The notes: generated by a model from the letters alone, not told the origin. DNA of 63,966 nt, filler included, from Reclinomonas americana ATCC 50394 (GCA_048213135.1; 13 parts of 13 records of this genome joined end to end with filler, not necessarily neighbours in it); one strand, 5' to 3'; shown: positions 11,324-54,491, counted from the first letter of the whole stretch. Numbers and translations are program-made.

Positions 11324-14274
11324 ATGGAACGCCGCTACCGCAACCACGACTTCGACGACGACGACGAAGACGACTATGACAGCGCGCGTGACAGTCCCAG
11401 TCGCCTGCTGAGCACCGCCGGCTCGGCGGCCTTCAAGGTCGCTCTGCTCGGGCCCAGCAAGGCCGGCAAGTCGTCGCTCATTGAGCGCCTTGTCAATCAC
11501 AACTTTGACGCCAAGTACACCAGCACCGATGCCTCCCGGCCTTACATTTGCAATCTCGAGTTGCGTCGCTCTCTCTCTCTCTCTTTCTGAGTCTCTCTGT
11601 GTGTCTGACTGTCGTCACCTGGTCAGCATCGACGGTGAGAAGTGCCAGCTGTGGGTCGAGGACACACGGCCGTCGAACCGTGCCGATCCGCAGGAGCTCT
11701 TCAAGTTGGGCACGCAGTACACGTACTCGGCACCCGGGTCCGACACAATTGTCAGTCACGCGGGAAGCTACAAAGGTCTCCCGTCGAAAAGAGAGAGAGT
11801 GTGTGTTAGTAGCGATCGCTTACTTGTGCACCAACAAAAGACTACGTGCGAGCCGATGATCCCACCGCCATCTCGGCCATGTCGGTCGACAGATACTGGC
11901 AAGGTGTGTTGAACAGCTCATGCTTGCTGCGCGGCATGCTCATTGTCAATGTTGCCGCAGCTGTCATTGTGGTGTACGATGCGTTGGACGATGGCAGCAT
12001 GGATGCGGCGGAGAAAGTCACCGAGGAACTGTATCGGCACATCAAGTTTCGTTTCCTGTGCGTCCTATGTTTGACGGCGCTGCGTCACTGATCGCGCTGC
12101 GGTGCTGGGCGACAGTTATGATCCGCACGTGCAGCGGACACTCGAGTCGCCGATTCCCGTGTTCTTTGTGGCCAACAAGTGTGGTTCGTGCTGCTGATCG
12201 TCGGTGTGTACTCTTGTGTGGACGATGCATCTCACTCGCGCCACAGACATGCTGCATGCGGGTCGCGAGTCGCAACTGGCAGGTGTGTGTCACGCACACT
12301 GTGTGCTTGATGTCACCAAGACTCACGTATAAAATAACAGGCCGCCAAGCGACTGCGCGTCGCCGGCTGAGAATTCCAGAAGACCAGATGATGGTGAGCC
12401 TTCATGCCGCTGCTGCCGCTGGTGCCCATCTTCACGTCGTGCTCACGTGCTGTCGCAGAGCGTGTCGGCGAAGAAGAATGTCGATGTGGACCTCCTCTTC
12501 AAGTGTGTTGTCCGCAAGGTTTGCGTTTCTCTCACTCATTCTCAGTGTTCTGGCGGGCTCGTTTTTTTGTCAGCTCTGTCTCTTCTTTCTGGCTCTCAAT
12601 TCTCACCATCTCCCAGCCGATTCACTTGCCAGTCGCACTCTTTGTTTCCCTTTCCCCCCTTCCTTCTCTCCTCAGTCTTCTCTCTTCCTTGTTCGCGTTA
12701 GTTATTTTTGTAGTCTCTCTCTCTCCCTCTCTCTCTCTTTCCTCTCCTTTCTGTCTCTCTCCAAGCTTGATTCGCTTCTCAGCTTCTCTCTCACGCTCTG
12801 TTTCCATTTCCCCTCCCTTCTCTCTACCTCTCTCCTCAATCTTCTGTCTTTCTCTCTGAGCTGCCTTCTGTCGGTCTCAATTCTCAGTCGTCTCTTTCTC
12901 GCTCACTCCTTCTCAGACTCCCTCATGCTCTGTTTCCCTTTTCCCTCCCTTTCCTCCCTCCCTTTCCACCATCTTTTCTCGTCCTTCCTCACCTTCGTCT
13001 ATTCTCAGTCATCTCTCCTTCCTCTCCCTCCTTAATTTCTCTCAGTCTCGCTTCCTTCTGTCTCTCTCAATTCTTTTTCTCAAGCTCTGTTTCTCTCCCT
13101 TCTCCCCTTCTCTTTCCACAGTCTTCTCTCTTCCCTTCTCTTCTAAGTCATTTTCTGTCAGTCCTTCTGCTCTCAGTCGTCTCTTTCTCGCTCACTCCTT
13201 CGCAGACTGCTCCCTCATTCTCTGTTTCCCTTTTCCCTCTCCCTTTCCTCCATCTTTTCTCTTCTTTCCTTACCTTCGTCTATTCTCAGTCGTCTCTCGT
13301 TCCTCTCCCTCCTTAATTTCTCTCAGTCTCGCGTCCTTCTGTCTCTCTTAAATCTCGGTCGCCTGTCTCTCTCTTGCACTTCTTCTCTCTCCCTTCTACC
13401 CTTTTCTTTCCTCAGTCTCCTCTCTTCCCTTCTTTTCTGAGTCATTTTCTGTCAGTCCTTCTGTTCTCAGTCGTCTCTCTCTCGCTCACTCCTTCTCAGA
13501 CTGCTCCCTCATGCTCTGTTTCCCTTTTCCCTCCCTTTCCTCCCTCTATTTCCTCCATCTTTTCTCTTCCTTCCTCACCTTCGTCTATTCTCAGTCGTCT
13601 CTCGTTCCTCTCCCTCTTTAATTTCTCTCAGTCTCGCGTCCTTCTGTCTCTCTCAATTCTCGGTCGCCTCTCTCTCTCTTGCACTCTTTCTCAAGCTCTG
13701 TCCCCTCCCTTCTTCCCTTCTCTTTCCTCAGTCTTCTCCCGTAGTCTCTCTCTCTCTCTCTCTTGTCTCTCTCCTTCTTCTTCTTTCTGTCTCCTCTCTC
13801 TCGCTCACTCCTTCTCAGACTGCTCCCTCATGCTCTGTTTCCCTTTTCTCTCCCTTTCTTCCCTCCCTTTCCTCCATCTTTTCTCTTCCTTCCTCACCTT
13901 CGTCTATTCTCAGTCGTCTCTCGTTCTTCCCCCTCCTTAATTTCTCTCAATCTCGCTTTTGTCTCCAATTCTCAGTCGCCTCTCTCTCTTGCACTCCTTC
14001 TCAAGCTCTGTTTCTCTCCCTTCTCCCCTTCTCTTTCCTCAGTCTCCTTCCCCTCAACAAACATGCACCACCACAGATCCGCGACCACGTGCTCCAAATC
14101 GACGGCGAGCGCGGCCTGCGACCAAGACCACTGGCGTACGATCACTCGGAGCGATCCGTGGGCTGGTTCCGCAAGTGCTGTTACTACGTATTCTGCTGCT
14201 GCTGGTGCCGGCCAGATCGGCGCGCCGATCGCGATTTCGAACCATTAACCCGCGGGCAGCCTTATGACGACTGA
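11324..14274 (+). CDS. Atypical Ras-superfamily small GTPase
   Basis: Spliced: FKVALLGPSKAGKSSLIERLVNHNFDAKYTST...IDGEKCQLWVEDTRP...AVIVVYD...PIPVFFVANKCD...SVSAKKNVDVDLLF; last exon IRDHVLQ...RKCCYYVFCCCWCRP...YDD* follows a ~1.55 kb intron. Confidence 0.85.
12870..14050 (+). repeat. CT-rich tandem repeat, about 4 units of ~300 bp, in the last intron of the GTPase gene
   Basis: The block ctcgctcactccttctcagactgctccctcatgctctgtttcccttttc...caccttcgtctattctcagtcgtctctcgttcctctccctccttaatttctctcagtctcgc recurs near 12900, 13190, 13480 and 13800. Confidence 0.9.
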
Positions 14275-14418
14275 GGGGAGGGAGGGAGAGGAAGGAGAGA
14301 AAACATGAACGAATTGGTTGTTGATTTTGTAAGGTTTTGGGTGGGTGTTTTGTACAAATTTCCGTTGTGACTCACTCATTGCGGCGTGCCACGCTAATCA
14401 ACCGCGCCCTCGCGCGTC

Positions 14419-17400
14419 ATGAACAAAGGTGCACATTAGCTGCTATCTCTCTCTCCCTCTCTGTCTGAGTGTCTGTCTGCGTGTCTGTGTGTGTGTGTGT
14501 GTGCGTGTGAGTGCAAGAACACTGATCCGGACACTTTGACACACACACGCACACAGCCCTAAAATCAAACAAGGAACGCCTGGCGTTTGTGCGCCAAGTG
14601 TTTGAGCAGTCGCAGGATGGCGAGAGAGCGTGTACATCTCTCTCTCCTCTCCCCTCTCCCTTTCACACACTCATCTCTCTCTCTCTCTCAGTGGACAAGC
14701 GTTATCAGTTGATCAAGAGCCTGCCGCAATTGCTCAAGATCGCCTCCTGTGAGAGCGACAAGGTGTTGCGTGAGGTCGCTCGCGTCTTTTATGAGCTCTC
14801 GCGCATGGCCGGTGTGCTCGACAGCTCCGACTATCACATTGAGGTGTCGGGTGAGTGAGTCAGTAGGCTGCGATCACGCTCACAGAGTCTTGCATCTCAC
14901 TCGCCTGAGTGCACGCACAGCCAAGGCACTGGTCGAGCTGTGTCGCTCGTATGATCCAGAGACGCAGATCCTAACGGCGCAGGCACTCAGCAACCTCGTT
15001 GTTGATGGTTTGCTCACGTGCCGCCCCTTGCTGTGATCGATTCTCTCTCGCGCGCTCATGTCTCCCTCTCGCTCGCAGAGAACTTTGTGGCGGAGCTGTT
15101 GGAGGCCGGTGGCTTTGTGCCTCTGATTGCACTCTTGCGCTCGGAGCACGACATTGTGCTGCAGGAGGCGTGTCGTGTGTTTATGAATATCAGCCTGAAG
15201 AGTTGCGCGCGAGACTCCCTCCTCCTCTCGCGACCTCCACTGTCGCTGCTTACGCTTATTATTTGCGGGTGCAGACGAGTCGGTGTTGCGTCTGACTATC
15301 ATTTGGTGCGCCAGCCCGCTCACCAATCTGCTCGTGTCCGAGAATATGGATGTGGCGGTGGAGGCTGCGTATGCCATTGGCACGATGGCCGCGAACGAGA
15401 AGATGGCCGAGGAGTTTTACGATTTCGGCATCTTTGACAAGCTGAAGCCGCTGTTGCGCAGCTGGGATGTCAACTTGAGGCGCGCGTGCATGACGATTGT
15501 CGTCAGCCTGGTGAACCACACGTATGTGCGGGCGTACTTTTTCAAGGAGATCTTTGTCGACAAGCTCTTCCCGCTGTGTCGCGACGAGGAGTTGGAGATT
15601 CGCTTGGCGTTGGAACGCGTGTTGGAGAAGCTGGCCACCGAAGACAAGTTCCAGGATGTGCTGTCAACGCGAGGTGACACCGACATTTTTACTTTTATCT
15701 TGACGAGTGGCATGTCGAACAACTTGAAACGGCAGTGTGTGGTGGCCGCCTTGCAGCAGAATGCTCTTCGTGGTGCGTACGTGTGTGTGTGCGCGCGCAA
15801 GTGCATGGCCACTTTTTGCGGCATTGCCGTCGCGTGCTCATGTTGCGAGTCGCACAGTTGGGCAAGAGTGGGTTGCCGCCGATCAAGCCATTCTCACGAG
15901 CATCACCACGCTGCTGCTCTCACGGGACCCCGAGATGCAAGCTCCTGCTTTGCGAGCAACGCATGCATGTTCATTCCACGGTGTGTGCTTGTGCGACGAT
16001 GCGCACTCGATCTTTTCAATCCCTTCTCACATGTTATCTTGTGGTCGGTAGAGGATCTGCGGCAGCGCGTTGTACAGAAGCGAGTGACGCCGGTGCTGCT
16101 GGAGTATGTGGTGAGCAAGGACGCCGAGCTGCGTCTCGTGGCGCTAGAGACAGTATGTAGTCTCTGTCAGGATCGTTGCGTGCACCCCAATTTGCAACCT
16201 CCTTCGCCCCGTCGAGAGCTGACGTTCGCCGGCTGCGTAGCTGTCAACGTGCCGAGTGTGTTTGACGACATTGGTGTGGATCCACTCTTTGATGCCATGC
16301 TGCTCTCCGATCCACGCTTGGTGCGCCTGGCCAGCAAGACGCTGCGCATTTTTACAGAAAATGGTGCGCCATCCTGTTGGCGACATGGAGACTCGTAACA
16401 TTACCCATCTGACACTTCGTGTGTGTGTGTGTGCGTGCAGCGGATCTGCGTGCCCGTTTTGTCACTCGCGGTGGTATGCGTCATCTCATGGTGGGCATGA
16501 ACGCCAAGGACGTTGTGGTCCACCGTCATGCCGCAGAGGCACTTTACAATCTGTCGCGCTTGAGTTGCGTGCAATCGCCTCAGTCGAGCACAGCATTACG
16601 TTGTCCCTCACGTGGCTTACGATTGACGATGCAGATGACTCGTTGGTAGCAATCTTGCGCGACGAGTACCTGACGGAACTGTTGAGCTACGATGCACAAA
16701 AGTTGGCGGGTGTGGCAGAGGAGGAGATTTTGGTGTCGGAAGACTTTAGGCGGCCGCCTCTTGTGATTCGGCTCTCCGCTCCCGGTCCCAAAGACCTCAA
16801 GCTGCGCACTCGTCAAGCCGGTATGCAGCTGACGTCACGCACGGGCCAGCCGATCTTTTTGGACGCTGCAGCCGAAGTTCGACTGCCCGTGGCCCCAGTT
16901 GCGATGGGGATTTCACAGGCACGGCTTGGTTTGCCAGTGTCTCATTCATTCATTGCAGGATCATGCCTGGTCCGAGTGGTCTGCCGACGAGCGGCTCCAG
17001 ATCGGACTGGTGGCTCTCAACACACTGCGTAATATGATTCGCTGCGGTTCGTTGTTTGTCTACAATCGTCTCGTGTCTCACCGGCGCGCGCACTCATTTT
17101 TTCCCCGTGCCCCAACGACAGAGGCTCCCGGCATTCAACCGGCCAAGTGGACACGGCTTCGTGCGCGCCTGGTTACAGCTGTCTTTAATGTGCTGCACTT
17201 TACCGAGGTTCCGTTGCTGCGACTGCGCTGCCTGTCCATTATCGACAAGCTGTTGGAGACCAGTTGAGTGTCATCCCACGTGCTGTGGCCGATGTGGTAT
17301 CTGACTTTAGCCGGTGAATGCGCAGTATCGGACGTGCTCCGCTCTGTTCTCATTGAGCAGCCGCGGTATCCGCAGCGACTGATCGAACTATTCATCATTC

Positions 17401-23009: not shown

Positions 23010-26000
23010 TGGCGTGGCCAATCATCAAGATGCACCGCACCGCATTCCCGAGAATATCTTGCACAAGCTGCGTTTGTGCTGTGAACAGCTGGAGGCGGTC
23101 GGCTGCCGCGACTGGACCTCCCAGGAACAGTTTCGTCGCCTTGATCATTATCTGCGGATGATTTCTGCTGCTCAACATCATGATACCTCGCAGTCTGCTG
23201 CGCGCCCTCCTGCTGGTTCCAGACAACGTGTTTGACGACGATCAAGGTAATGCCAGTGAGCTGTGTTCTTGCCTTTCATTTGTTGTTGCTTACCTGGTGC
23301 GCAGAGTGTGAGGGCCCTCTCACCACGCTGCTTGCTGCCTTTGCTCCGGCCGTCCTGGTGCATCAGCGCGCGGTTTCGGTGGACACGTGCATCGCTGAAG
23401 GGTGCGTGCGCGTGTGTGCAGCAGCCTCTTGTCAACAGTAGCGTCTCTTATACCTGCCTCACAGATCGCTGTATCATCGTCTTCTGGTCGAGTGCGTCCG
23501 GTGGCTCCAACAGCAGGGCGCCGTCGGCAGCCGCAAAGGCGCCAAGCTGCTGCAAGCCTTTGACATTGCGCGTGTTGGTACAGCGTTGTTGGCAGTGGCC
23601 GCGCGCGAAGTTGCGTGCCGCCTGTACTCTTGTACGACGCGTGACATCCTCCTCACCTTTCTCGGACCTCCACCAGTCGGCGGTTCCACAAGTCGAACGC
23701 GTCGTGTTGCCGCTGGCCGAATTGGCGCTGTCCGATGTGCACTTGTCGGCCGCGTCTCACGGCCTGTTCAAGGCCCTGCAGCAGGTATGCACGCACGCAT
23801 TCTCCGTTTGGCATTTGCCTCGTAGTGCTGACTTTGTGCAATTGCAGCACGTGCCGCACCGACTGATGAACCTCTTCCAGTCGTCTCTCGAGAGCCACTT
23901 GGCGGCGTTGACGGCTGCCGCCGCTGCCGAGGGTCAGCAGCACCGAGCGTGGCCTCAGTTTGCTCCGCTGTTTGCCAGCCTCGACAACACACAGGTATGG
24001 CGACGTGACAGATCCCATTGTGTCACCACCACCTTGACCGCTGATTTCCTGTGCGTCGTCACAGCTGCAAATTTGCATCCGCCTGGTCCGGCCACAGGCG
24101 GCCACCTTGTCGTCACGCCCGCAGTCGTGCTGCCTGCTGGTGCTCCAGGTGCTGGTCGATTTGTTGTCAGGTGTGTTTGTGGATACGGCTGTGTACACAT
24201 TCGTGGTGGTGTGTGTTCATGCGTGTGCGCGTGTAGTGATCGATGACTCGTCTGTCGGCGGCATGTACGCCGAAGTGGAATCGATGCTGCGAGATGTGTT
24301 CAGAGCCGCTGCCGACCACGCGGTGGTGAGAGCGTACTGCTTGTCGTTGCAGGAGAGTGGGCTTTGACGATTGACTGAAATCGTGTGTTGTACTGACAGG
24401 CTGAGTTCATGCAACATGTTGCTCCTGCGCGCTTCTGGGTTCGCCTTCTTCACGGTCTCCGCTCCATTGTGCAGCGGCTGGTCGACCACCACCCACAGCT
24501 CGTCAATCTGTTGCTGGTTGCCGTCTTCACTTCGCTGCTGCCGGCCATGGCGTCGATGGACAGCTACGGTTTGTTTTCTTGGGGTGCGAACACGACGAGT
24601 CATGGTTGCTGACGCACGGAGATGTGTGCGTGTTGGTGCAGAACATCTGGAGCAAATGCGCCTTTTCGTGCTCTCACTGCCCATGGCATCCCGCGACATT
24701 CTGCTCCATGTGACACACGCTCCGCTCTTGCTCGGCTTCCTGAGACACTCCACCTCGCGCATGTCCAAGTTGAATGCACTGCTGCTGCAGACAGCAGCAA
24801 TGGCCGACAGGTTCGTCACCTCTCTTTATATTACCGCCTTATACACCCTCAATCTTATCATATCATGCAACCCCGCGCAGTGCGTCGGCGGCGGCACCAC
24901 CACCAGCAGCAGCAGCAGCAGCACCGGCACCGGCACAACCGAGTGTAGCCCCGTACCCGCAGCTGACATATGTTCAATCGAACGCAAATTCGTCGGCTGC
25001 GCCAGCACAATCGCAAGCACCACCGCCACCGCCGCCGCCACCACCACCCCCAGCGCCACCAGCGCCCTCTGCAGCATCCTCGCTGGCTCTTCTGCGGCAA
25101 TTGGCCGAAGCGTGGCAGGAGTTGACGCTGGCCTGGGTGAATGTGTTCTCGTGGCGCCTGCTGTGCCAGAACTCCGACATGATGACACTGGCATTCGAGT
25201 ACCTCAGCTGGGCGTTGCAGTGGGGTTTCCTCACTGGCTGCCCGGTGCCCGAGGCACTGCGCACGTTCTTTACACATGGTGCGTCGTGCTGGCTACCAAT
25301 TCAACGCACTGAGACCTCACACCAACCGACTGTTCGTGTCACGCAGAAATCTCGTGGACAACTGCGTCGCCTGCACTCATTCAGTCGCGTCTGCCGAACA
25401 CGATTCTCGCCCGCCTAATTCTCCGTTTCGTGTCGGACACCGGTGCTCTTCCTTCTTGGGTCCTTGCTGTGCGAGCTAATGGTTGCTGCAGTGCACGGAC
25501 CGTCGATCGGACATGAGGATCTCGGTGCGCGAGTCATTGGCTTCCTTCGGTTGCTGTACGACATGGCAAATGCACCCGATGCGGTGCCACTGGCAGCTCT
25601 TGATGAAGTCGGGGTCGCGCTTGGCTCGTATCCGTCTCTGAGTGTGCCGTCGCCCCCGGCGTCCGCCGCTTCTGGGTCGGCACCGTCACCATCGGCAGCA
25701 CTGCTGATGTCGCCTGATCGAGCACGCCTTGTTGGCGACGCTGATCGCCTGGAGTTTGTGGAAGAGAGTGGCACATCAGCTCTCGACTTCCGGCCCTCGG
25801 CGACCGAACGCCCCAATCCCTTGGCGCTGGTGTGCGCGCGAGAAGCACGATCTGTGCTGTTCTTCTTTGTCAGTGTCTCGGACAGCGCTCCTCGTTGCGT
25901 TTGTATGCGTGCGCGCTGAGAACGCTGCTTGTTTGTCTCGATTGGTGCTCACGGAGCGGTCTGTTTGATCAGAGTGCTGGTCGCTCACCGCCAAGGACCA

Positions 26001-27800
26001 TGTAACTATTGTAAATGATATCATTATCCCGCTGGCCGTGCACTTTGGCCATACCACGCCGGGAGTGTTGACGGCACTGACGACATGCTTGTCGGTGTGC
26101 AAGTCACTTCAGCACATTGGTGAGTCCCGCTTTCTCTTTCTCCCCTCCCTTTCTCCTCTCGCTTTCTCATTTCTCGTGGTCGCAGGAGGGGCCGGTGCAA
26201 TGCTCGACCCGTCCGTCGGCAACGCATGGCTTCGGCGTGCCGGCGACTTTAGCCTGGTCTCGGAGGCCCTGGCGGCGTTCGAGGCTCCGGCTGTAGACTC
26301 GCAAGACAGCCGCAACATCAAGGAAGTTGTCGAGTGCCTCAACTCTTTGTCGACGTCGCACCGGCCGGTGGTCTTGCGGTTCACCGAGTTCCCGGGAATC
26401 ACCACCCTTCTCAACATGCGTGTGTTGCGTTCCGCTTCATGCTATTCATTTCTCCTTGGCCGATTGCTCACCGACACGCACAACAGATATCCGTCGTTCT
26501 CGCATCCCTCCTGCATCGACATGCACAGCGGGTACGAGCCCGAATGGGTGCGTCTGTGGGACCGCGTGGCGCATCTGGTTCTCTTTGCCTGCTCGCAGTG
26601 TCATCCTCCAGTCGCACTCGAGCTCGTGCGTGTGGCGCCGACGAGTTGCGTTCAGTTGTCCGTGCCCGTTACGTGCGATTGCTCACGATTTCGTGTTGCA
26701 CAGCCATGATGCCCACACCAGCAATGGCCCGTCTCCTGGAAGAGTCGTACTTTGCTTTCTACTCGCAAACTGGCGCAGCCACTGCACACACACACGCGTC
26801 TGCCGCACTGACACTCCCGCCGGTGCCACTCGGCAAATTCCAGCAGGTTTGTGTTTTGCATGCATGCACGAGTGTGTGTGTCGCATGCGCAGCTTATTTC
26901 TCACACTTGCGACACAGTTGTGCGTGGAGGCCTTTTGCCCACTGACGCTGTACACGCTGTGTCGCAAGTGCCTCGGTAGTGTGTGGATCGAGGCCGAGTC
27001 ATCTGCGTCGCTGGCAGGCGGCCCCATGCAGCACGTGTCGTTCCGCCACGCAAACTCCATCAACGGTGTCCCCGTCGGCGACGTCAGCTCGCGGCTGCGG
27101 TCGTCCGAGCCGGCACTCACCTCCGAGATCGTGGAAGTGTGCAGTGCGGTCAACCGATTCCAGCCGTCTCTGGTTCAGTCGCGACCGTTTGACGTGCTGC
27201 CTCTGTGGTTCCTGTTCCTGGAGCTGTGCGAGAGTGTAGCATTCGAGGGCGACGAGACAGCCCTGGCGGCACAGGTCTGCGTGTGCGTGCACGGTTGGCA
27301 AGAGTCTGCGCATGTATGCTCACCTGTTGTTCTCCGTTGTTCCACAGTTGTCGGCCTTCCTGGAGCATCTCGATGCGGTTCGTCGCTCGCTGAAGGGCGA
27401 GTCGGAGAACACGGGAGTGTTGTCTCGCATGCGTCAGTGGCTGAGCAATACGCTACATGGCCTGTCTCGGTCGGCCTCCTCGTCTGCGGCCGCGGGAGCA
27501 ATCGCCTCTGCCCCGCTCCCGGCGGGTGAGTCGTCGCTGCAACCGCTGGCACCGGCCGCTGGTCAGGCTGCCTCTCCGGCTCCTGCTCACGGCACGCCGG
27601 AGACGCCAGCCACGTACCACCGTCAGCACGTGTTGGCGATGGACTTGGCCATTCGGTTGGTGCAGATGTACACACAGCGGTCGTTGTACCGCAGTCGCAT
27701 GGCGCAGGCGCCGGCGCAAGCCACCAAGGATCTCGAGCGACTCGACGCTGACGTGCAGAAACTGCTGGCTCTCAGCACGAATCCAGACTACTCGCTTTGT
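23010..27800 (+). CDS. EPG5-like large helical autophagy tether, partial (bounded by gaps)
   Basis: Multi-exon helical protein. FQQLCVEAFCPLTLYTLCRKCL, VLPLWFLFLELC and LAIRLVQMYTQ...VQKLLALSTNPDY resemble, in order, recalled C-terminal motifs of EPG5. Not database-verified. Confidence 0.55.
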
Positions 27801-39879: not shown

Positions 39880-42258
39880 ATGCACGACGAGGAGAAGCAA
39901 TTGACTCCGCCCAGCGCATCGTATCTCGGCAATGTGCTGTCGCACTGCAACCTGCTGCTGTACAGCGATCATGCCGTGTACCAGCTGCAAGTCGACAGCG
40001 GGCACGCACCAAAAGCCGTCGTGCGCTCACCATCGCGACTGACAGCTCACGCAGTTGGTGCGCGAAGCTTGCTTGCAGTGGCTGACACGCAGCGCACTGT
40101 GCGCCTTCTCTCCCTTGATCGCGGAAGCGATGTGCCCTGCAGTGTGTGGTACACGCGGACACTGAGCGTGGTGTCGTGCATGGACTTGTGGGAGGATGCG
40201 GGCGGGCGAGAGTGGCGACTGGTGACGGGAGGGTTGAATGGCGTCGAGCTGTTTGCTGCTCGTGTGAGAGCAGAGGATGAGGAGGAGGAGGACGAGGAGA
40301 AGAAGAAGAAGGGAGAAGAGGTGTTCGAGCCTGCGCAGGTGGTGGTCGGTCATCGGCAGTACCAGATTGCATGCGTGCGCTGGTCACACGATGCGCGACA
40401 GCTGGCGGTGGTACATGTCTCTATGTGACCGCGGCAACGTCAACTCCGTGGACTCATCGGTTGTGATGGCGCAGGCGTCCGTGGATGGTCGACTTGCTGT
40501 GTGGAGGGCCGCCGACGCGGATGGCGTCATGGACTTGTATGGTGCTTTGCTTGTCGTGGTGTCGGGGTGCTTATTCGTGTATGCGTGTGTGCTTCGCTGA
40601 CGTCGACTACTCACACGTGTCTGGCTTGCGCGCGGCCAGAGTCGTGGTTGTGCGATGTTGATGGCGAGTGTGTGACCGCGATGGAGTTTGGGCGCGCTGG
40701 CTCGCTGCTGAGTGTCGCCACGTGGAACGGACAGCTTATCGTGTACGGCAGGCGCGATGAGGTTAGATCGACAGCGCATCGATTCGTCCACCAGTGGTGC
40801 AGTGCGTCTGAATTGTGCACGTGCAGGTGGCGGATGGGCCATTCAGCTGGCAAGTCGTGTCGACCACGGGTGGTGGTGCGCTGTCCAGCGGCGGAGACAC
40901 GGCGAGTTGGGGCGCGTCGTCTCCGCCAGCGCTGACCGTGTTCTCACCCACCGGGCGACATGTCATGTTGCGATCTTACGTGAACGCTTGTCGGGTCGAG
41001 TTGTTTTTTTTTTCACTTGATGATGTGCAGGCTCTCGTGTTGGTGGACACGCGGTGTGGCCATTGTCGACACGGACAGTGGTATGGTTGTGCAACGAGTT
41101 CCGTTCGAGTCACCGCTAAAGGGTCTTGCACGGTGCGCGCCACCAGCACCACCCCAACTGTGTACAACTACGATGGCCTGTGTGTGTGATGACACCCGTG
41201 CGTGATTTGTGCAGGTCGATGTACGAAGCAGTGGCTGCTGTGGACAGGCGACGATTGTTGCACACGTTGCAATGGCCTAGTGAGTGTGTGGCCGACGTCG
41301 CGCAGCCACGATGCATCTCCTGTCGCATGGCGGCAGTCCGCTTGCACCCCACACGAACCAGCGCATTGTGCGTGACGTGGCAGCGAGTGACTGTGGTGCG
41401 GCATGCGGATGCGGACGATCGGCTGCTGGAAGTGTGCGAGAGCGATCGTCCACACGTGGTGCCGTTTGTGGGCACCCGCTGGTTGCCACTCGATCATCTG
41501 CCTGCGTGTCACCGTGCGTCAAGAGTATCCGCCGCTGGCGCCAGTGAGTCGCGCCTGTTGGCGCTCGACTCGACGCACTGCTACCTGGCGTGGAATCGTC
41601 TCATCTATGTGGGTTCACGAGCGACCGACTCGTGGACACACTGTCGTCTCGATGCGCCCGTGGTCGCCATGTGTGCCGGTCTGCAGTGTGCCGAGCAGCA
41701 GCATGCCGTGCTTGCAGTGCTCGCCAACTGGCGAGTGGCGGTGGTGACAGGGGCGGAGCATGAAGGGGCATCGCCCGCTGTGAGCCTGCTGCGAGACATT
41801 GGTGTGGACGACAGACACCCAAGAGTGGAAGTAGGCGGCGAGATGCATACGCACTGCGCTGTGGTGTGCTCGTGGATTGTGACGGATGAGCGAGCATGTG
41901 TGGTGCAAATGACGTGGGTCTTTTCGTCGGCGACAGCGGCAGATCAGTGGCATGTGGTGCAAGAAATGTGTCGGTGCCCCGTCGATGACCAACTGCGTTT
42001 GGTCGGTTGCATAAATGGAGTACTGCCGCTCTTTGTCGCAGACGACGACCACGAGACAAGTTCAAGAGAGAAGACAATGTGGTTGTATGTACCCGGTTCG
42101 TCGACAACTGCGTCAATCGACTTCATTTTTCGTGTCGCTGACATACACAATGCCTGCAGGTTTCGATGTATGGAAACCGCTCCACGACTGGCCGCTGCTG
42201 GACGACCAAGAAGGGACCGTGGCCGCCGAAGGCCTCACCAATCCCTTCTCCCTGCTCA
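39880..42258 (+). CDS. WD40/beta-propeller protein, 3' end in the gap
   Basis: LAVADTQRTVRL, RLVTGGLNG, GHRQYQIACVRWSHDARQLAVASVDGRLAVW, VTAMEFGRAGSLLSVATWNGQLIVY. Confidence 0.7.
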
Positions 42259-42683: not shown

Positions 42684-45553
42684 TCACCTCGGTGGCTGCC
42701 TCAACTTCTCTCGCATCTCCCGTTCGAGTTCAGCGCGCGTTTGCTTGGTCTTGGTGACTACAACTGTGCGACCGAGACCGCCGTCGTGCTCGATCACGGA
42801 GGTGGCCGAGGGCGACGACGACGACGACGAAGACGAGACGCTGTCGTGTGGCGATCCGCGCAGATGCATCTGCGTGACACCGAGTGGGTGCAAGTCGTCG
42901 TCACCATCATCGTCGTCGACGTCCTTGGCGTTGGAGGAGCCTCGCCGCGCCGTGACCTTTTCCTCAATGATACGCTGCCGCGTTTTGTCGGCCTTCTTGG
43001 TGGCCCGCTCGCGCTTCTTGCGGTCCTTTTCCAGCTGCTTGAATTCCACTGAGGAGAGCACTCGTGTCTCTGGAGGCGGCACCGACACCACATTCTCGGC
43101 CGAGAGCAGGGCGGCCTCCACGCCTGGCACCGCGGGTCCGGCCAGCCGTCCACCATAAGTCTTTTCGTGCGCCATCGCTTCCTCCCACAGGTAGTGCACG
43201 AGACGCTTTTCTGTGGCAGTGGTGACCAGACTGCGAGCAGTGGGGGGTGAGCAGAGAGACAATGCACAAAAGAAAGAAAGAGAAAGGGGGGGGGGGGTAC
43301 GCAACTAGAGACGGCAACATTTGTTGTGCAGCTCGAGCATCTTGCAGGCCACAAAGGAGTGGCCGTACAGCTCCTCCAGGTTCCCCGACTGCGGTATGCG
43401 GTGAGGATGTGAGCAGTAGCACCAGGCAACAAGACAACACTGACAACGTACCTTGGAGAGGATGGACTCGATGAGCTTGTTCTTTTGAATCACTTGCTCC
43501 AAGTATTCCTCCTCGGTCTTCACGATGCGATTCTGCGCACCGAGAACGAAATCAGAAGTGTGCGGGGGAAAAGACACAGGATCGCGCACGGCGAACTCAC
43601 CAGGTCGCTTTCCGACTTCTTGTCGTAGTCGGCGTGAATCTGCTCGAGGCACTCCCACAGCATCTTGATCTCGGTGGCCTCCTGCTGCCATCGGTTCGAC
43701 TGCACCTCCAAGTCCTGCTCAAATAATAAGAGGCCGTGACTACAAGCTGCACTACACGGCTCTGCGCACCGACGAGTGCTCCAGAATCCTGGCCAGTTGG
43801 TTCTCAAAGTGTGTGCGCATCGTCTTGATTTGCTCACTGCGCATCCAGCAGCAAAGGCATGAGTCAGTCGCCGGCCTTCGACCCAAACAAATGCACCCAC
43901 ACTACGCACCTCTCGGTGCCAACCAGTGTTGGTGTGGGCTCCACCAGTGCCGCAAGTCCCGCTGTGTATGCACGTCAAGCATGTCAGCATCGACCTTTCT
44001 TCTTCCCCCTTCATCGAAACAAGAAAATCGCAACTCTTTGGTGGTCCTGAACTCTCGACGGGTCGCATGGGGCTTCTTGAGAATGCCTGCTGTCGCACCG
44101 CTTGCAGTTCGTCGTCTCGTGCACGCAAGTCGTCCTCCAGCGTACGTATCCGAGCTTGTAATGAGCTGCGAAGATAAAAACCGCAAAATTATGAGTACGC
44201 GAGCCGTCGACAACTCTATACACGCACGTGCGTCCTCGACACGACGCAACTCGATCAGTTCAGTGTCCGGATCGAACTTCATGGCCGCCAACTCGTCCAT
44301 GAGCGACGGTGCCTTGCCGAGATCGGTCGACACTGCGTGACGCCGTCTGCGCACAAGAAAACAAAGAGTCAGCTTGCCCGCCACTGTCAGCTGACAGAGT
44401 GTGGCATGGATCGCAACTGTACAGCGCTGTCCATCAGCTGTCGTTCCAACTCGGCCACCTTGAACTTTAGGTCGCGCTCCTGATCCGAAGCCGTGCGCAG
44501 CGAGTCCTGCATGTCTTCCATATCCCGCTCGTATCGATCCTCGAGTTCCTTCCATTGCCGCTCCCGCTACGATGGTGCAGAGCGTGCGCACGCTATCGGT
44601 AAGCGGGGTGCGGTAATGGAAAGCGAGTCAAAACAAACACATGCCTCGCTCAGCTGCTCGTCCGACTCGCGCAATCTCCGCTCCAGCACAGGAATCTTGC
44701 CAATGGTCGCCTGCAACTCTCGGACACGTGACTCGAGCTGCTCAATGTGTGCCTGCTTGTGGTTCTCGTACGTCATGTGCATGACTGGCGGCGTTTGCAG
44801 ATGAGTCGTGGACAGGGTCGAAAGGCAGCTAGCTAGCAGCAATAGAAAAGTCGCAACTTTGCTGGCCCGTGAGCTCCTTCCGCACGTTCGCCAACTCGGC
44901 CTCCAGCTTGTCCTTGTCTTGCGCAACGTGCTGATACTCGTCCAACTCGTCTTCCAGCTGCACGACGGGCGAACATACACGTAAGTCACGCAGCACGCTC
45001 ACCATGCGCGCGAGAACCACTTGCCGTGCGAATGCGTTTCCGCAGACGGGAAGCGGCCTCCTGATCGCTCTGCAGTCGCTCGTCTCGTTCCCTGATGCAG
45101 TCATTCAACTCGCGCATCTCCTCGTCCTTGCGCATCATGTTCAACTCGGCCGTGTGCACCAACGCCGACTTTTTCGTCAGCTCCTACACACCGCACAAGT
45201 GGTCAGCTGGTGACCACCACCACAAGAAACATGACGCGCGCGTGTGTGAGTGTGTGTACGTCCGCACCCCACGCAAGTCCGCCAGCTCCCGCTGCGCCTC
45301 CTCCACGCGCTCTTTCTGCAGGTTCAGATCCCGCGTCAGATCCTCGTTTTGCCGGTTCGCCTCCTCAAACGCCGCAAGAATGTCATTCAGCTGTGGAGCG
45401 CCCGCCCAATGAGCAAGCGCAAAACAACATTAAAAAGAGACAAGCAATCGCCACCTCTCGCAGTCGCCGATCACGCTCCGCCGTCATCGCCATCAACGCC
45501 GCCTGCACCTGGCTCAGCTGATCCACCAGCATCGCACCATGACCTATTATCAT
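42684..45553 (-). CDS. Long coiled-coil protein (both ends approximate)
   Basis: Spliced exons rich in E/R/L/Q heptads (LEDELDEYQHVAQDKDKLEAELANVRKEL; IEQLESRVRELQATIGKIPVLERRLRESDEQL). Confidence 0.65.
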
Positions 45554-46358: not shown

Positions 46359-47731
46359 TCAGCAGCGATAACAACAAGAGTCGACTGTTTGCAACACGAG
46401 TCTTACCGCCTGGTCGCAGTGGCCGTGCGCCCACCAGTCCTGCACCGTGGCGAACCAATCGCCGGCATCGTCGTCCTCAAAACTCAACCGCGTTGCGTGC
46501 TCGGCGCCATGTGTATCAGCCACTGTGCGGTCGACGGTGACGACAAAGCACATCCTGGAGATGAGCATTGACGGAAGGAGTGCTGGTTTACCTTGTCGCA
46601 ACAAGACCACACGGCGACGACCAGCAGCTCGCGGAACCAGCGACACAAAAACGACTGGCGAGACTCGCGGTGTGAACACCAAAGCAGCGACAACAAAAGA
46701 TAAAGTCAGTGCACCAAGCGTACCTCCTGTCGGCTGCAAGCTGCTCACAGAGAACGCAAACTGCGAATCGGCCATGCTGCGGTCAGCGAAACACACAGAA
46801 CCCACAATGCCAGAAAAGACACGAAACATGTGCGTCGAGGTGGAACGACAGGCGGTCGGTGCAAACGCGAACAAACACACGTTCCCACCACTCTTCATCG
46901 TCGACTTGCCGCCAGCCCCAGCCTGAGAGGAGGTATGAGATCGAGAAACGCTTGGAAGGAAAAATACCAATCGCTTTGAGTGCACCTTCTCGCACCCGAT
47001 CCCCCCAGTCACCACTGCCGAGCGACAAACAACACAGATGAGCGCACAGGGAGGATACATGTGGCTCGGGTACACGCACCTCACAGCATCCATCAGCACT
47101 TGCACATTCGATCCGTGATCCAACCGCAGCGCCACAAGCCACCCGCGAATGAGCTCACACCACTCATCTCGCTCCTCCGCCGACTCAAACGCAAAGTCGC
47201 GCAGTGCATAGCCGCGTTCCATCGCTACACAGTGTCACAAAAGAAGAGACAGAGAGAGAGAGAACGCGCGTGGCAACACACACCTGATTCCTCCGTAAAC
47301 ACCAGTCGCACAGCATGAGCATGCGGCGTCGCCGAGGACGAGTCAACGGCATCGCGAGCCACCACATGCTGCACCTCGCGCCACTCCACAGAGCCTCTGA
47401 CCTCCGCAGACTGCCACAAACAACAATCAGTCACACACACACACACACACAGACACACTCTCTCCCTGTCTCATACACACACCGAGTCATCCGCAAAGTA
47501 CTGCAACCCGCGCTCCGCATGAATCGTCACCCACTTGCGCTTCCACACACGCCGCAGTGTGCTGTGCGCGGTGAACTTCCACGCCCACGCACTGCGTCCG
47601 TGTTGTTCCTGCTGGTGAGGCGCGGGCTTCTCCCGCACGTGAGTCATCAGTGGCACCACGCACTTGGCCGGACTGCTCATCGACGCAAACACGCGCAACG
47701 CGGCAGTCTGTGACGCCGACGGAGACGACAT
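46359..47731 (-). CDS. Tandem PH-domain protein (3' end approximate)
   Basis: WAWKF...[24 protein letters not shown]...RGSVEW...[20 protein letters not shown], then a second PH-like unit REGALKAIG...WWERVFVRV...[12 protein letters not shown]. Confidence 0.7.
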
Positions 47732-47802
47732 TGTGTGTGTGTCTCTGTGTGAAAGTTGTCGTGATCCGCCGGATTCCACTCGCGTTTGTTGAGTTGTCGC
47801 GA

Positions 47803-48778
47803 ATGAGCGCTCCTCTGCGTCTGCTGTCGCAAGCAGAGGCGGCACTGGTCGATCTGCGCCTCATGAGCGACGAGTTTGGCTTTTCTCTGCCGCAGCTCAT
47901 GGAGCTGGCCGGTGAGTTGTCTCTCTCTGCGCTCTCTCACAACCCTCTCTCACACACTGAGAGTGCAGGGTTGAGCTGTGCGGCGGCCATTCGGCACTGG
48001 CGATCACCAGTGGAGGAGGCCAATCGGCATCCGCTCGTTGTGTGCGGACCCGGCAACAATGGAGGCGATGGACTGGTGGCAGCGCGACACTTGGCGCTGT
48101 TTGGGTATCGGCCCACCGTTGTGTACCCAAAGCCCAACAAGTCGGAGCACTTTGCGGTGTGCATTCGTTGCTGTGTGCGTGTGTGAGGCAGGCACTGATT
48201 GCCTCGCCTACAAGGGATTGATCAAGCAATGCTCGCACTTTGGGATTCCGGTGGTGGCCGAGTGGCCGCGCGAAGGCACCGTCTCCTTCATTGTGGACGC
48301 GGTGTTTGGCTTCAGCTTCAAGGGCGATGTGCGTGCTCCGTTTGACGGCATCCTCCGTGAGATGATCCGATTGCAAGCCAGTGTGCCGGTGCGTGTTTGC
48401 TGTCTCTCTCCCTCTTCTCTCCCTCGTACCGATGGCTTCATTCGCTCGGCAGGTGTTCTCCATCGACATTCCATCGGGGTGGGACGTGGAGCAGGGCGAT
48501 GTGGCGGGCACGGGGTTCCGGCCGCAGGCCGTCATCTCCCTGACCGCGCCCAAACTGTGCATGCGCGGCTACACTGGCACGCACTACCTGGGCGGTCGCT
48601 TTGTGCCATTGTTGCGTGCCGTGCCGTGCTGCTTCTCCGTGCTTGTCTACTATGTGTGTGTGGGAGACTGACACGGGCTGCGCGCAGCTCGCTGGCCGAG
48701 GAGCTCGAACTTGCGCTCCCCGAGTACCCGGATGCCGATCAATTTGTGCTGCTCTCCGACGAGGCGGGGTGCCAGTGA
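47803..48778 (+). CDS. NAXE: NAD(P)H-hydrate epimerase (YjeF_N, APOA1BP/NAXE)
   Basis: [95 protein letters not shown]; four introns. Confidence 0.96.
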
Positions 48779-48808
48779 ATCGCTTGCAAAACAATAGTGA
48801 TATATTCA

Positions 48809-51800
48809 TTATCTTGATGGCGGCTTGGCGACGAGCTGCGACGCGGCCATGGCCTTGTTGAGGCGCATGGTAGCAGTCAGTCGACTCCGCATTCTGCCGA
48901 GGAGAAGTCAGTAACGACGCACCAAGGGCTGACAGACAGTGAACAACGCACTTCTTTTCCAGCATGAGATGCTTGAGGTCCTCGAGTCGTGGCGTGGATT
49001 CTGGCTTGACGCCTTCGACTTTCTCGTACAGTCCCACGCACTGGTCGTGCAGGGAGCGCTCTAGCACCTTGGCCTCGTGGAGAGGGATGGAACGGTCCTC
49101 AATCAGTCGGAACAGGGTCTCGACTGGAACTCGTGACTGCGCCAGTGTCGCTTGCAATCGTTGCACCTCGATCGCTGGCAACTGCAGTGGTGGGGCGGGT
49201 GATTCGTCGCCCCCTCGAGAGGGCGGCGGTTGACTGTGGCTGCGAAGTCCTGCGCGCGACGGCTCTCCTAACCTCCGCGACTCCAACGGTGGCGCCGGAG
49301 ACAGGCGAGTGGGGTCGGGCAAGAACGACGATGACGGCACAGGAGCTGTGCCACGACAAGTTGTGTTGAGGCGAAGCACATCGACACATGCAAACAAACA
49401 ATGTCGTCAACGCAACGAGGCGGGGTGAGCAGGTGCTCCCGTTGCATCTCCACTTCGAGGGCGCGCAGGNNNNNNNNNNNNNNNNNNNNNNNNNNNNNNN
49501 NNNNNNNNNNNNNTTAATTAATTAANNNNNNNNNNNNNNNNNNNNNNNNNNNNNNNNNNNNNNNNNNNNATATGCGAGCAAGCAAGCAAGAGAGTGGAAG
49601 AGGCAGAGGGAGGACGGCAACGCACTCATCCAGGTCAGTTGTCTCGGTCCATGCTGCATTTTTTCGCGTGTGTGCGTGAGCGATATAGGATTAACGGCAG
49701 GCGCGTGCAACCAACAACTACCACGCAACTGTCGACCAGTTCGAAGCTCGTCTCGAAGAACACGTTCCACGGCAATGCCTTGAGCTTGTCGCCCACCGAG
49801 TCACGCACCCACTCGCCGGCCAGCATGCTGGCCACGTCTTTCTTGGTCATACCCGAACACAACTTGCCTAGCACCTTGGTGAAGAAGGTGACGTACTCGT
49901 CGCGCTCGACGGTGCCAGTGGCGTTTGAGTCGCACACTTTCCACCACTGCACGATCAGGAAAATGAGTGGTGCATGAACGTCCAGCCAAAGATGGAAAAA
50001 AGACACGTGCGCGGAGAAGGCAAAAAACCGAACATTCGGTCCGAAAGGATTGTGCGGGGGTGGGGAAGCGTGCCCCCCAGCAGCGACTCACGACAGGGGA
50101 ATGAAGAAGGGAGAGGTGGCGAAAGAGAGGGCACAAAAGGGCAGGTCGCCGCAAAGAGAATCGCACAACGGTCGAAAAGAAGAAAGACTGCGTCATCCAT
50201 TCGCCGCCACGCAACTCTTCTGATGGCCTCCTCCATCTTGCTGTGGTTCTTGACGGCCCGGCGCTTGGCAATGGCCTCGTCGGTATACATGTCGAGATTG
50301 CCTTGCAAGTAGTACGGCACGGGTTGACTGCAATAGGCAGGCAGGCGCCGCAAGGCAGCATAAGTCCGCCGAGGGCAGTAACAAAGTAGGCAGGCAGGAG
50401 ATGTACGCACTCGCCCGACAACTCAAACACAATGTTGGGGTCCTTGACCAGTTGAGCCACGTCGTTGCGCACTGACCGCATGGGAATAAACAGAGGTCAG
50501 CACACGACGCGACCGCAAAAAAAGAAGCTCAACTCGCTTTCCGAAAGGACAGTCATCATGCGTGTCCAAAACACAGTCGGTTTTGCGCACAAGGAAAAAG
50601 GCGTCTTGAATGCCCGCAACCATGCATACGCACGCACACACACACACCCTTTCTCCCCCCGTAGGAATCAATGGAAACCACCATCACGCAAAAGAGAGCG
50701 ATCGACCGAACATGACAGACAAGTGCGGGTCAACCTCCCAGTCTAGCCCACCCCGCACGTGCTCTCCACCCAACGCAACATCGATCGAGCGGCTGCAGTG
50801 CCGGTGGTGCTGGTACTTCACCACTGACGACAGCACGCACGCGTTTCCAGTGGACTTCGCTGGCTTTTGGCTCTGCCGGCAAGTGCATTTTCATCATCAC
50901 GCAAACACGCACACACACACGCACGCACACACACACGTGCAAGCACACGCACCTGCTGACGGCGAGGACGGTAATGGTGGTGATGGTGGTGATGGTGCGG
51001 GACCAACAACAGGAGTCGGACCAATCGTCATTGCAGGAGTCACCGACACGGGCGTCAGCGAGGATCGCCGTTGGTGCGGACTGCCGGCCGACATTGGCGA
51101 CCCCATGCCCGTGACAAACAGCGGCGATGACGGCGACTCGGTCGGCGCACGACTGAACGCAACAGCGGCCGCAGTCGGCGACGAAGGCGGCGACTTGCCG
51201 ACCAGCGACGAGATGGAGCCGACTGACGAGAATCGACGAAACATCTCCTGCATGCGACCCAGCACTTGCCCGCTCGTGGGCAAATCACCAGCCTGCGGAG
51301 GATGTTGCGGCGGTGACAGAGACGAAGACGCGTCGTCTGCGCTCACTGCAGGTTCGCGAACTGAAAATCCCTCCAAAAGCACCTGTATGTTACACACGAA
51401 AAAACCCGAACACTCATGATAACGGCGAAGGTCGATTGGTGTGCACGGCGCAGGCAATCTCACCTTCCAGGCCGGACGCCGTGAGATCATCGATCCACCG
51501 CCGCCCGTAACAGCAGCATTCGGAGGTGACGTAGGCGACGTGGCAGAGACCGTGCTGGTGCGCCTTTGTTGTTGTTGCTGTTGCGATTGTTGCGCTTGTT
51601 GCGCATTTGTAATCAACAATCCACTCATTCGCTTGCCGCCAGTGGCATTCGGTGGTCGACCGAGTCCCGTGACTGAGGTAGGCGTGTCCGTGGCAAAGCT
51701 CGCCACAGAGGACGAGTTGGCAGCCGAGGGCGGGCGCTCCAGTGGACTGAGCAGAACGCGGCCGCCGCCCAACGTCGACAGCGGCTGCGGTGAAGGCAGT

Positions 51801-52233: not shown

Positions 52234-52546
52234 ATGTCTCGTGCTGTCTCTCGCACTCTGTTGTGCTCCTCTGTGTGCACTCAAGAGAGAGTGCATGTCT
52301 ATGCGCTCCTCTCACTCACTCACTCTCTCGCTCGTCGTGCAGCATTTCGTCAGGCGCAGGAGCAATATCGCGACTTGGAGAACTTGGAGGTGCCGAGTGG
52401 TTCTCCTGAGGTGCGCACACACAGAGAGAGAGAGAGAGAGAGAGACNNNNNNNNNNNNNNNNNNNNNNNNNNNNNNNNNNNNNNNNNNNNTTAATTAATT
52501 AANNNNNNNNNNNNNNNNNNNNNNNNNNNNNNNNNNNNNNNNNNNN

Positions 52547-52592
<46 letters not shown>

Positions 52593-54491
52593 TGAGAGAA
52601 GCTGGATCAGCGCGCGTGCAGGAGAGAGAAGATAGAAGATAGCGCCTTCCGTAACGCCGAGAGAGGTGAGAAAAACAGGAGGCACTATCAGCGCGCGTGC
52701 ATCGCAACACGAAGAGAATGGCGAGCGAGAGAAGCATGCAGGCTCAGTGCACTTGCAGGGGAGAGTGAAGAAGGCGCTCTCTGTAACGCCAAGAGTGGTG
52801 AGAGAAGCATGAAGAAGGATCAGTGCTCGTGCAGGAGAGAAGAAGGCTCGTTCAGTGAGTGGTGAGAGAAACAAGAGGCACGATCAGCACACGCGCAGGA
52901 GCAAGAGAAGCAGGGAGGCGAGGAAAAGGAGTCGTACGAAGCAGAGAGTGGTGTGAGAAAGAGAAGAAGGTTTAATGTAGTGGAGAAGTCGCCCTGTTGG
53001 CAGCGAGATGCATCAGCAGGATTAGAAACGCAGCAAAGGAGGTTGAGAGTGGTGCATGAGACGAGAGGCACGATCAATTGCGAGGAAGCAGAAGAAAGCT
53101 CGTAGGATACCGAGAGTGGCGAGAGAAACAAGAGAGAGAGAGAGAGGGAGAGAGAGAAGGAAAAATCTCGTCATTGGAGATAACGACGATCGAAGCAAGA
53201 ACTAGATTAGCGCTCGAGCGAGGGAGAGAACGCTCGTTTTACGTTGGCGTGCAGTGCTCCCTCCCCTGGCGTGCACATGCTGTTCAGTCGATTGTGGCTC
53301 TTTCTCCCTTTCTCTCTGTGTCTCCCTCATCTGCACGTGCGCTGATCATGCCTCTTGCTCCTCTCTCCCTCTCTCCCTCTCTTGTGCTGATCCTGTTTCA
53401 TGTTTCTTTGTGTCGCAGGCATTCTTCAAAAAGTTCCTGCGACAATGCAAGCAGTACTCACTGATCGACCCGCTGGACATGCGCATGCTCGCACCGTTCT
53501 TCGAGGCCGAGGAGGATGGAGCGTCGTCGAGTGACAGCGGTTTTGAGTTCCGTCGACCGTCGGTGGATGCACAGACGGAGCGTGCGCTGAAGGTGCAGAG
53601 GTACAAGCGCGGGAAGGAACTCGAGGCGCGGATGAAGGAGCTGTCGGAGCGCGTGCGACAGTGGCGGCTACACGAGGGCGAGAGTGTGGAGTCCGACATG
53701 GAGGAGGCGGAGCGGAATTGTGTGATGGAGACGGCCAAGTATTTTGTCAGCAAGTGTGTCGATGAGCTGCCGCTGTTGAGTGACGAAAAGCGGCTATTGC
53801 GGCATCGGCATGAGTCGGTGGAGGTGGGCCGCGATCCGCGAGAACGGTTACCACATGAGCCGCCGGTGAGTGGGAGAGAGGAAAGGGACAAAGGAAAGGG
53901 GGAATGGAGGGAAGGGGACTGTGAGAAAGGGAAAGTGCAGAGTCGGGGACGGGGAGAGATTCACGGCGACGTTCTATCTTGTGAGTGTCTGTCGTTAGAG
54001 GAGAGCGTGAGAATGGCGTGGGGATGAGTACGGTTGCCAGAAACGACATGTGTTTTCGCGTGGGAGGAATGAGTACTTGTTCTGTGCGACTCATCTTCGC
54101 TGCACACAGACACAACCCATCAAGACCTTCACCATCCAGTCTCAGCGCGACGCCATTGTGAAGAGCATGTTTACGCCGAAGAATTTGCCGACCATGACCC
54201 CGGAGGAGTGGGCCGACGAGCAGATTGCCCGCGGTTTGCTGTTGCGTCCCGCTGTAGATGCCGGCGTAGTGCTTCACGATTTTCTTTCTTACATGCCACT
54301 GCAGGTCGTCAGCTGAAGTGGCCGCCAGGGAAGCCGGTGTGCCCTACACGAGAGAAAAGGACGGAGAGGAGGAGGAAGAGGACGAGGAAGGACTGGAGGA
54401 TCCGGATGATGAGACTGAGCTGCGAAAGGCGCGCAAGTGGGACGATTGGAAGGACGAACATCAGCGTGGTGCCGGCAACCGTGGCCGCTAA
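52234..54491 (+). CDS. IGBP1: TAP42/alpha4 (IGBP1) PP2A-associated protein (some exons in the gap; start approximate)
   Basis: FFKKFLRQCKQY, RALKVQRYKRGKEL, PIKTFTI..QRDAIVKSMF..NLPTMTPEEWAD, ELRKARKWDDWKDEHQRGAGNRGR*. Confidence 0.9.
52590..53140 (-). repeat. Degenerate GA-rich minisatellite in a TAP42 intron
   Basis: At least 5 imperfect copies of (g/t)atcagcgcgcgtgcaggagagagaag and of gagagtggtgagagaa. Confidence 0.75.

Follow-up and report, generated by a model that had tools for sequence, protein, structure and literature searches.

The DNA analysed here is a window of 63,966 nucleotides (nt) from Reclinomonas americana ATCC 50394 (GCA_048213135.1), and the subject is the 5' splice site, or donor, of its introns. 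The window is composed of 13 contigs of about 2-11 kilobases (kb) each, joined via N44-TTAATTAATTAA-N44 linkers (one at 11206-11305, and eleven more places), with a G+C content of about 55%. Because it is a chain of linked contigs, gene order over the linkers is meaningless, and several genes are truncated at contig ends. Genes placed by Pfam included ARM repeats, peptidase M50, TAP42, YjeF_N, GH76, a cytosolic carboxypeptidase, a UvrD helicase, and Roc/Ras GTPases. The DNA is that of a eukaryote rich in introns; these are short (median about 65 nt), with CAG at the acceptor and YTSAY as the branch motif. Rfam at gathering score returned a single tRNA family match over the whole window, at 63612-63683 on the minus strand (55.1 bits). 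At E<=1 the matches were the tRNA and weak microRNA-model hits (26.8-36.4 bits, against gathering scores of 69-90), and no small nuclear RNA (snRNA) gene was found within the window by Rfam at either setting. Statements on splicing are based throughout on DNA, reading frames, and protein homology. We found that about a quarter of the short introns use donors of the type A^GTTGCGT (the caret marks the cut), which correspond to AG^GTGCGT read with an offset of one base; so far, this mode is known only as a human rarity.

Introns were located with a motif-free gene finder, i.e. dynamic programming on codon usage, an acceptor matrix, and intron length, in which any GT was accepted as a donor. It replaced a finder that used codon usage only and allowed long introns; this one drifted onto CT-rich repeats, and its introns were unreliable. 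Such a CT-rich low-complexity tract, with repeated units and open frames of 80-390 codons, lies at 12520-14270 on the plus strand. Donors were sorted into a standard class S, with G at +5, and a class X, GTT-N-notG-G, and our statistics rest first on the motif-free set. The motif-free models contained 68 introns, namely 40 S and 14 X; the remaining 14 fit neither class and are probably misplaced for the most part. The commonest donor hexamer was GTTGCG (9/68), followed by GTGAGT and GTGCGT (5 each), and position -3 of the acceptor was C in 66 of the 68 introns. X words account for 326 of the 8318 GT sites (3.9%), and the binomial probability of drawing at least 14 among 68 is 3e-7. When two donor matrices plus a background were fitted blindly as a mixture to the 68 donors, CCA^GTTGCGT emerged with a weight of 0.21 and CAG^GTG(T/C)GT with a weight of 0.56.

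For the later models, the finder also scored donors with the mixture and had a branch term, and it gave 78 and then 86 introns. These final models comprised 59 S, 25 X, and 2 other introns, with X on 9 of the 13 contigs; the resulting X share of 29% is partly self-reinforcing, as the donor mixture was learned from the data, and should be read beside the motif-free 14/68. GTTGCG was the word in 17 of the 25 X donors and GTTTCG in 5, with three others seen once each. The reversed sequence, run with the same settings as the later models, yielded 0 introns. X and S introns had similar lengths (median 67 vs 65 nt) and equal composition. Of 78 introns, 71 had a branch-like YTSAY at a distance of 8-45 nt from their 3' end, and both the branch motifs and the acceptors of X introns were like those of standard introns. 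Intron phases were also tabulated: 22 S introns were in phase 0, 22 in phase 1, and 11 in phase 2, and X introns were distributed as 11 in phase 2, 7 in phase 1, and 4 in phase 0 (significance not computed). Taken together, about 70% of donors are of the standard form (C/A)(A/T)G^GT(G/T/A)(T/C/A)GT, and about 25-30% are (C/A)(A/T)^GTT(G/T)(C/A)GT. A first-pass annotation of the same DNA had stated that most donors are GTNNG, which holds for the 40 of 68 and 59 of 86 introns above, and that both classes occur within the same genes, which we confirmed in 13 of the 18 gene models with at least two introns. These results show a second donor class that is abundant and occurs together with the standard class in the same genes.

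The most precise placement of X donors came from the cytosolic carboxypeptidase gene, one exon of which led to 120 CCP6-type homologues, the best being about 50% identical. Sixty homologues were aligned with a protein-to-genome spliced aligner that allowed any GT/GC..AG intron and used no further motif. The homologue counts below are those using exactly the given donor and acceptor; strands are in brackets, and exon bases stand before the caret.

30732..30822 (-): X-class intron, tca^GTTGCGCT (GTTGCG); 49/60 homologues, junction free of nearby gaps; all have K as the first residue past it
29976..30034 (-): X-class intron, caa^GTTTCGTG (GTTTCG); 60/60 homologues; selected by the motif-free finder as well
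29394..29460 (-): X-class intron, cct^GTTTCGTC (GTTTCG); 52/60 homologues; the junction codon T^AC, Y, is common to all; found in the motif-free models as well
30469..30522 (-): standard intron, cac^GTGCGTAC (GTGCGT); 53/60 homologues
30256..30326 (-): standard intron, aag^GTCTGCTT (GTCTGC); 54/60 homologues, 24 of the alignments having gaps close by
29571..29629 (-): standard intron, tcg^GTGAGTGC (GTGAGT); 57/60 homologues

A seventh intron of this gene, near 29809, lies in a gappy region and its placement is ambiguous. A reading in which both borders move by one base, giving a TT..AGN intron, was ruled out at 30822 and 29460, because the residues K and Y are common to all homologues using these junctions. 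As a control, the same aligner was used with the window's protein on 80 metagenome loci of the family. It produced 278 introns, 33 of them well pinned, and these comprised 19 standard, 10 other GT, 4 non-GT, and 0 X donors. The X share was thus 3/7 in the window's gene vs 0/33 in the metagenome loci (p=0.0035). A metagenome scan gave no close relative, the best reaching 72% on one exon. Directly upstream of the carboxypeptidase gene lies a GH76 gene with three introns (31495-32707, minus strand). The standard donor at 31963 is pinned by two exons of this GH76 gene, which align to adjoining stretches of the Pfam profile (85-220 and 222-338).

We then compared the bases around the cut in the two classes. 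In the motif-free set, G occupied -1 in 33 of 40 S donors but in none of the 14 X donors, which had A (12) or T (2) there (p=3.6e-8), and in the final set the corresponding numbers were 52/59 and 1/25. Position -1 of X (A 16, T 7, C 1, G 1) was similar to position -2 of S (A 28, T 14, C 13, G 4; chi-square p=0.20) and unlike position -1 of S (p=5e-13). For the X exon bases, the S matrix moved by one was favoured over the unmoved matrix by 26.8 bits. On the intron side, X preferred T at +3, G or T at +4, and G at +6, so that +3 to +7 carry the standard preferences of +2 to +6. T was found at +7 in 15 of 22 X donors, like T at +6 in S (39/55) and unlike T at +7 in S (13/55; p=5e-4). The two classes are C-A-G^G-T-G-C-G-T and C-A^G-T-T-G-C-G-T, the same nine letters apart from the first intron G of S, which is T in X. 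The displacement affects the exon side of the consensus as well as the intron side, and this is a whole-register shift rather than a simple bulged U at +3. The first-pass annotation was therefore right to see a second, abundant class, in which +6 and +7 hold the G and T found at +5 and +6 in the normal signal. Its description of these donors as the same words with one T inserted did not hold, since the exon side moves too, and its proposal of a routinely bulged U+3 is not favoured. A bulge predicts G at -1 and a shift predicts A or T; the X donors fit the shift. Standard donors mostly carried a pyrimidine at +4 (43 of 55; T 23, C 20, A 10, G 2). The preferred base there in animals is A. The pyrimidine preference may hint at position 5 of the organism's U1 or at its U6 contacts.

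The specificity of the X words was assessed at single sites, independently of gene models, with a four-part test. The GT had to lie at the end of a frame that is open for 40 codons or more, and reading through it had to meet a stop within 25 codons; joining over 48-100 nt to a YAG preceded by YTSAY then had to leave the joined frame open for at least 40 more codons. This stricter test was used instead of an acceptor-matrix-only test, which had no power even on standard donors, and a loose open-reading-frame rescue test, which had a background of 27%. X words passed at 21 of 163 sites vs 302 of 5507 other GT sites (p=3e-4), similar to standard words preceded by G (13/106). Control words one base away from X passed at background or below (0 to 6.6%): GTC.. 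at 7/155 sites, GTG.. at 8/231, GTA.. at 2/39, words with no G at +6 at 22/331, and words with A/C at +4 at 0/43. The word GTTGCG itself was found 93 times on both strands, compared with 61.63 expected from 100 dinucleotide-preserving shuffles (standard deviation 8.64). The highest shuffle count was 82, and 0 of the 100 shuffles reached 93.

The first-pass annotation had listed 24 shifted donors, and all 24 hexamers are present at the coordinate and strand given there. As donors, 16 of the 24 gained at least one kind of support from gene models or homology, and 8 had none. Ten were picked by the gene finder that knew no donor motif, 14 were in the final models, and three (30822, 30034, and 29460) were pinned by protein homology; the final models added eleven donors of the same class beyond the list. 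The annotation had also described several donors as pinned by conserved motifs. Of its four examples, alignment upheld the one in the carboxypeptidase, and the junction CNLD^IDGE of the GTPase was not pinned: in comparison with solved structures, the G1 motif alone of the GTPase exons aligned, and exon 2 had no match. The X-class introns outside the carboxypeptidase gene are as follows, with their exon bases, their genes where assigned, and the models that contain them.

7846..7910 (+): cat^GTTGTGCG; final models only
11560..11626 (+): cga^GTTGCGTC, small GTPase gene; motif-free and final models; no in-phase GTNNG alternative
12046..12115 (+): caa^GTTTCGTT, small GTPase gene; final models; the motif-free model took a GT 16 nt downstream
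15202..15274 (+): aga^GTTGCGCG, ARM-repeat gene; motif-free and final models
16564..16634 (+): tga^GTTGCGTG, ARM-repeat gene; final models; no in-phase alternative
16898..16958 (+): cca^GTTGCGAT, ARM-repeat gene; motif-free and final models
17263..17325 (+): cca^GTTGAGTG, ARM-repeat gene; motif-free and final models; read-through stops after 1 codon
17838..17901 (+): cct^GTTGCGTC; motif-free models only; flanking codon score near zero
23130..23193 (+): aca^GTTTCGTC; motif-free and final models
23610..23676 (+): gaa^GTTGCGTG; motif-free and final models
25894..25972 (+): ctc^GTTGCGTT; final models only
26424..26486 (+): tgt^GTTGCGTT; mixture-based models, including final
26645..26703 (+): cga^GTTGCGTT; motif-free and final models
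33809..33885 (+): aaa^GTTTAGCT, short-chain dehydrogenase gene; motif-free and final models; adjacent exons match adh_short
40967..41030 (+): cat^GTTGCGAT; mixture-based models, including final
43231..43305 (-): cta^GTTGCGTA; motif-free and final models; read-through stops at once
43962..44034 (-): aga^GTTGCGAT; final models only
44347..44417 (-): aca^GTTGCGAT; motif-free and final models
44785..44857 (-): aaa^GTTGCGAC; motif-free and final models
46761..46827 (-): cat^GTTTCGTG; mixture-based models, including final
48611..48687 (+): att^GTTGCGTG, YjeF_N gene; mixture-based models, including final; past the end of the Pfam domain, hence not pinned
49654..49729 (-): aca^GTTGCGTG, EF-hand/EH gene; final models only
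54241..54304 (+): gct^GTTGCGTC, TAP42 gene; mixture-based models, including final; donors 54241 and 54246 not separable by distant homologues
58426..58500 (+): ccg^GTTGCGCT, the sole X donor with G at -1; low-scoring model, in mixture-based models including final

For the TAP42 gene, 12 matches to representatives of the family were obtained at about 30% identity, too distant to choose between 54241 and 54246. A homologue search with the TAP42 exon at 'longer' lengths gave no match, although this choice of length may have excluded true relatives, and a search with the ARM-repeat exon gave no match either. Elsewhere, two exons of the UvrD-type helicase (59639-59917, plus strand) match Pfam positions 27-52 and 53-93, an exact continuation over the standard donor at 59714. 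Within an exon of the M50 peptidase, a stretch of 51 nt beginning with GTTGCG and ending in CAG (21032-21082, plus strand) is in frame and free of stops, and may be intron or coding.

How could such donors be recognized? In established splicing, donor positions -3 to +6 are read by the 5' end of U1 snRNA. We consider it likely that the X class is the standard signal displaced by one base, with the reader of -3 to +6 pairing out of step and the catalytic core cutting at the GU. In the register of the signal, CAG-T-TGCGT would stand in place of CAG-G-TGCGT, the first intron G of the signal having become T. The G that normally ends the exon would then supply the GT together with the following T, and the cut would fall one nt upstream of the register's junction. 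U1, or another reader of these positions, would bind one base out of step with a U-C mismatch, after which the U6/U5 catalytic core would cut at the nearest GU. U6 would have to tolerate one extra nt between the cut and its +5G/+6U contact. According to PMC4856993, U1 does no more than mark the site, and it is U6 that fixes the cut.

Several observations weigh against this reading. With a human-type U1 5' end as printed in PMC4856993, which may not be that of the host, the predicted duplex had a mean of -1.6 kcal/mol for X vs -6.8 kcal/mol for S. In these predictions the G+1 of X was unpaired in 16 of 22 donors, paired with C9, the shifted position, in 5, and with C8 in 1. A shifted helix is not established by predicted thermodynamics alone. 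C occupied +5 in 20 of 22 X donors, and canonical U1 would not favour C there. The X cut sites were placed by reading frame and the GT-AG rule, plus homology for three introns, and the residue-level pins come from one gene, the carboxypeptidase. Besides the self-reinforcement in the final X share, the models span 24.5 kb of the window, and 58 of the 93 GTTGCG words lie outside them. Finally, the listed donors at 16175, 19992, 21032, 35423, 35905, 31236, 50215, and 37780 had no support from models or homology, with negative coding scores in the flanks of 31236 and 19992.

An alternative, close to the variant U1 or U6 that the first-pass annotation had proposed, is a dedicated snRNA variant, e.g. 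a second U1 whose position 8 pairs with U and which fully matches CAGUUGCGU, or an altered U6/U5. The X donors would then form a second code rather than a tolerated mismatch. The size and tight definition of the class (GTTGCG or GTTTCG in 22 of 25 donors), the very weak predicted pairing of X to human-type U1, and the C at +5, which canonical U1 leaves unexplained, all speak for such a variant. There are also precedents, since humans carry variant U1 genes (PMC3561869, PMC10870369) and a co-evolved snRNA is described in Entamoeba (10.1101/2022.06.08.495308). We regard this explanation as unlikely. The same holds for the broader proposition that this lineage has two donor codes, with at least a quarter of its introns out of register and served by a dedicated spliceosome adaptation, which we hold to be doubtful. 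Such an adaptation might consist of a second U1 able to pair with U through its position 8, or of a U6/U5 tolerating one more nt ahead of the ACAGAGA contact.

A bulged U at +3 would leave pairing normal on the exon side and at +1/+2, loop out one U, and resume pairing from +4 to +7. It agrees with the intron side, where G is at +6 and T at +7, and with the enrichment of T alone at +3. A bulge at +3 (or +2) is moreover a proven register in human (PMC4856993), and the U6 stage needs some such accommodation in any model. However, it requires a G at -1 to pair with C9 of U1, and this G is nearly absent from X donors and present in most standard ones; the exon bases also fit the shifted matrix better. 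We therefore disfavour the bulge for the U1 stage and regard it as distinctly improbable.

It is very improbable that the class is an artefact, whether of donors misplaced by prediction or of an extra T from homopolymer errors in a low-coverage assembly, and we reject this explanation. The window is indeed a chain of short contigs, and the 14 other donors among the 68 of the motif-free set look misplaced. Some in-phase GTNNG alternative exists for 13 of 23 X donors, and none for the remaining 10. However, the 13 donors have 16 such alternatives between them, and none of the 16 has G at -1. A spurious T in G^GTGCGT would keep the G at -1, which was not seen. The three donors pinned by 49 to 60 of 60 homologues also speak against an artefact, as do the two controls, i.e. 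the metagenome loci (0 X among 33) and the reversed sequence (0 introns).

The donor words are very uniform, as would be expected if the class were a single, recently spread family of mobile introns (introner-like elements) whose donor comes from their common origin. However, X and S introns are alike in length and composition, and an all-vs-all blastn of 78 introns at E<=1e-3 gave 22 non-self rows; the best 20 of these are short (14-19 nt) or dinucleotide-repeat matches, with no pair of X introns among them. We reject this explanation as extremely improbable. Introns of the minor spliceosome (U12-type), for which the donor consensus is RTATCCTT, would likewise form a second donor class within the same genes. 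We give this explanation practically no weight and reject it, since the words are GTTGCG/GTTTCG, the branch motifs and acceptors are as in standard introns, and a share of 25-30% far exceeds any known U12 share, which is about 0.36% in mammals (PMC4856993).

The one-base displacement of the standard signal thus remains the explanation that we prefer. So far, the choice of the exact cut after marking by U1 has been studied on a few odd human sites and on engineered substrates. If every fourth intron here uses a shifted donor beside standard ones, the organism would offer hundreds to thousands of natural test cases, and would reveal whether a variant snRNA of its own is required for such a class. 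If the reading as two donor codes were true, it would be a natural system that uncouples the choice of cut site from the register of donor recognition. In practice, about a quarter of this genome's introns would be misplaced or missed by gene finders trained on just one donor matrix. A full-text search of the literature, with subscription journals mostly outside its coverage, gave no report of an organism or lineage with an abundant class of shifted donors.

Among known systems, the closest is the shifted register of human donors. Human sites of this kind number a few dozen and are a rarity, unlike the class described here, which comprises about a quarter of introns. In the human shifted (+1) U1 register (Roca and Krainer 2009; PMC4856993), all base pairs between donor and U1 are displaced by one position, and this register is separate from the one with a bulge at +3 (or +2). 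As in our X donors, the positions of the signal are displaced by one base relative to the cut and the GU is kept; the intron G+1 takes the place of the exon -1 G, and the last exon base takes the -2 preference, A (PMC4856993). The test oligonucleotide ACA^GUCAAGUAUA of that work has the same A^GU layout. In contrast to the human sites, X donors keep the U at +2 of the register (GTT) and continue with GCGT rather than AAGT, and their pairing with U1 is putative. The bulge registers of the donor/U1 helix (Roca et al. 2012; cited in PMC9311317 and PMC4856993), in which a U at +2/+3 is looped out and +5G/+6U are read at +6/+7, resemble the intron side of X, but there the exon remains in register with G at -1, and in X the exon side is displaced. 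The tandem donor of STAT3 (PMC11162779) is similar in that the cut is not fixed by the position of U1 and U6 pairs in a non-canonical register; it concerns, however, one human exon in which the two GUs are spaced by three bases, and not a genome-wide class. Entamoeba (10.1101/2022.06.08.495308) and the diplonemids (PMC12621601) are cases in which whole lineages depart from the textbook donor. In these lineages a single consensus was changed or GT-AG was lost, whereas here two registers stand side by side. The diplonemid introns described in PMC12621601 have (G)/GTATG donors or have lost GT-AG, with YTRAY in only 2-16% of introns, unlike those of this window, of which 71 of 78 carry the branch motif.

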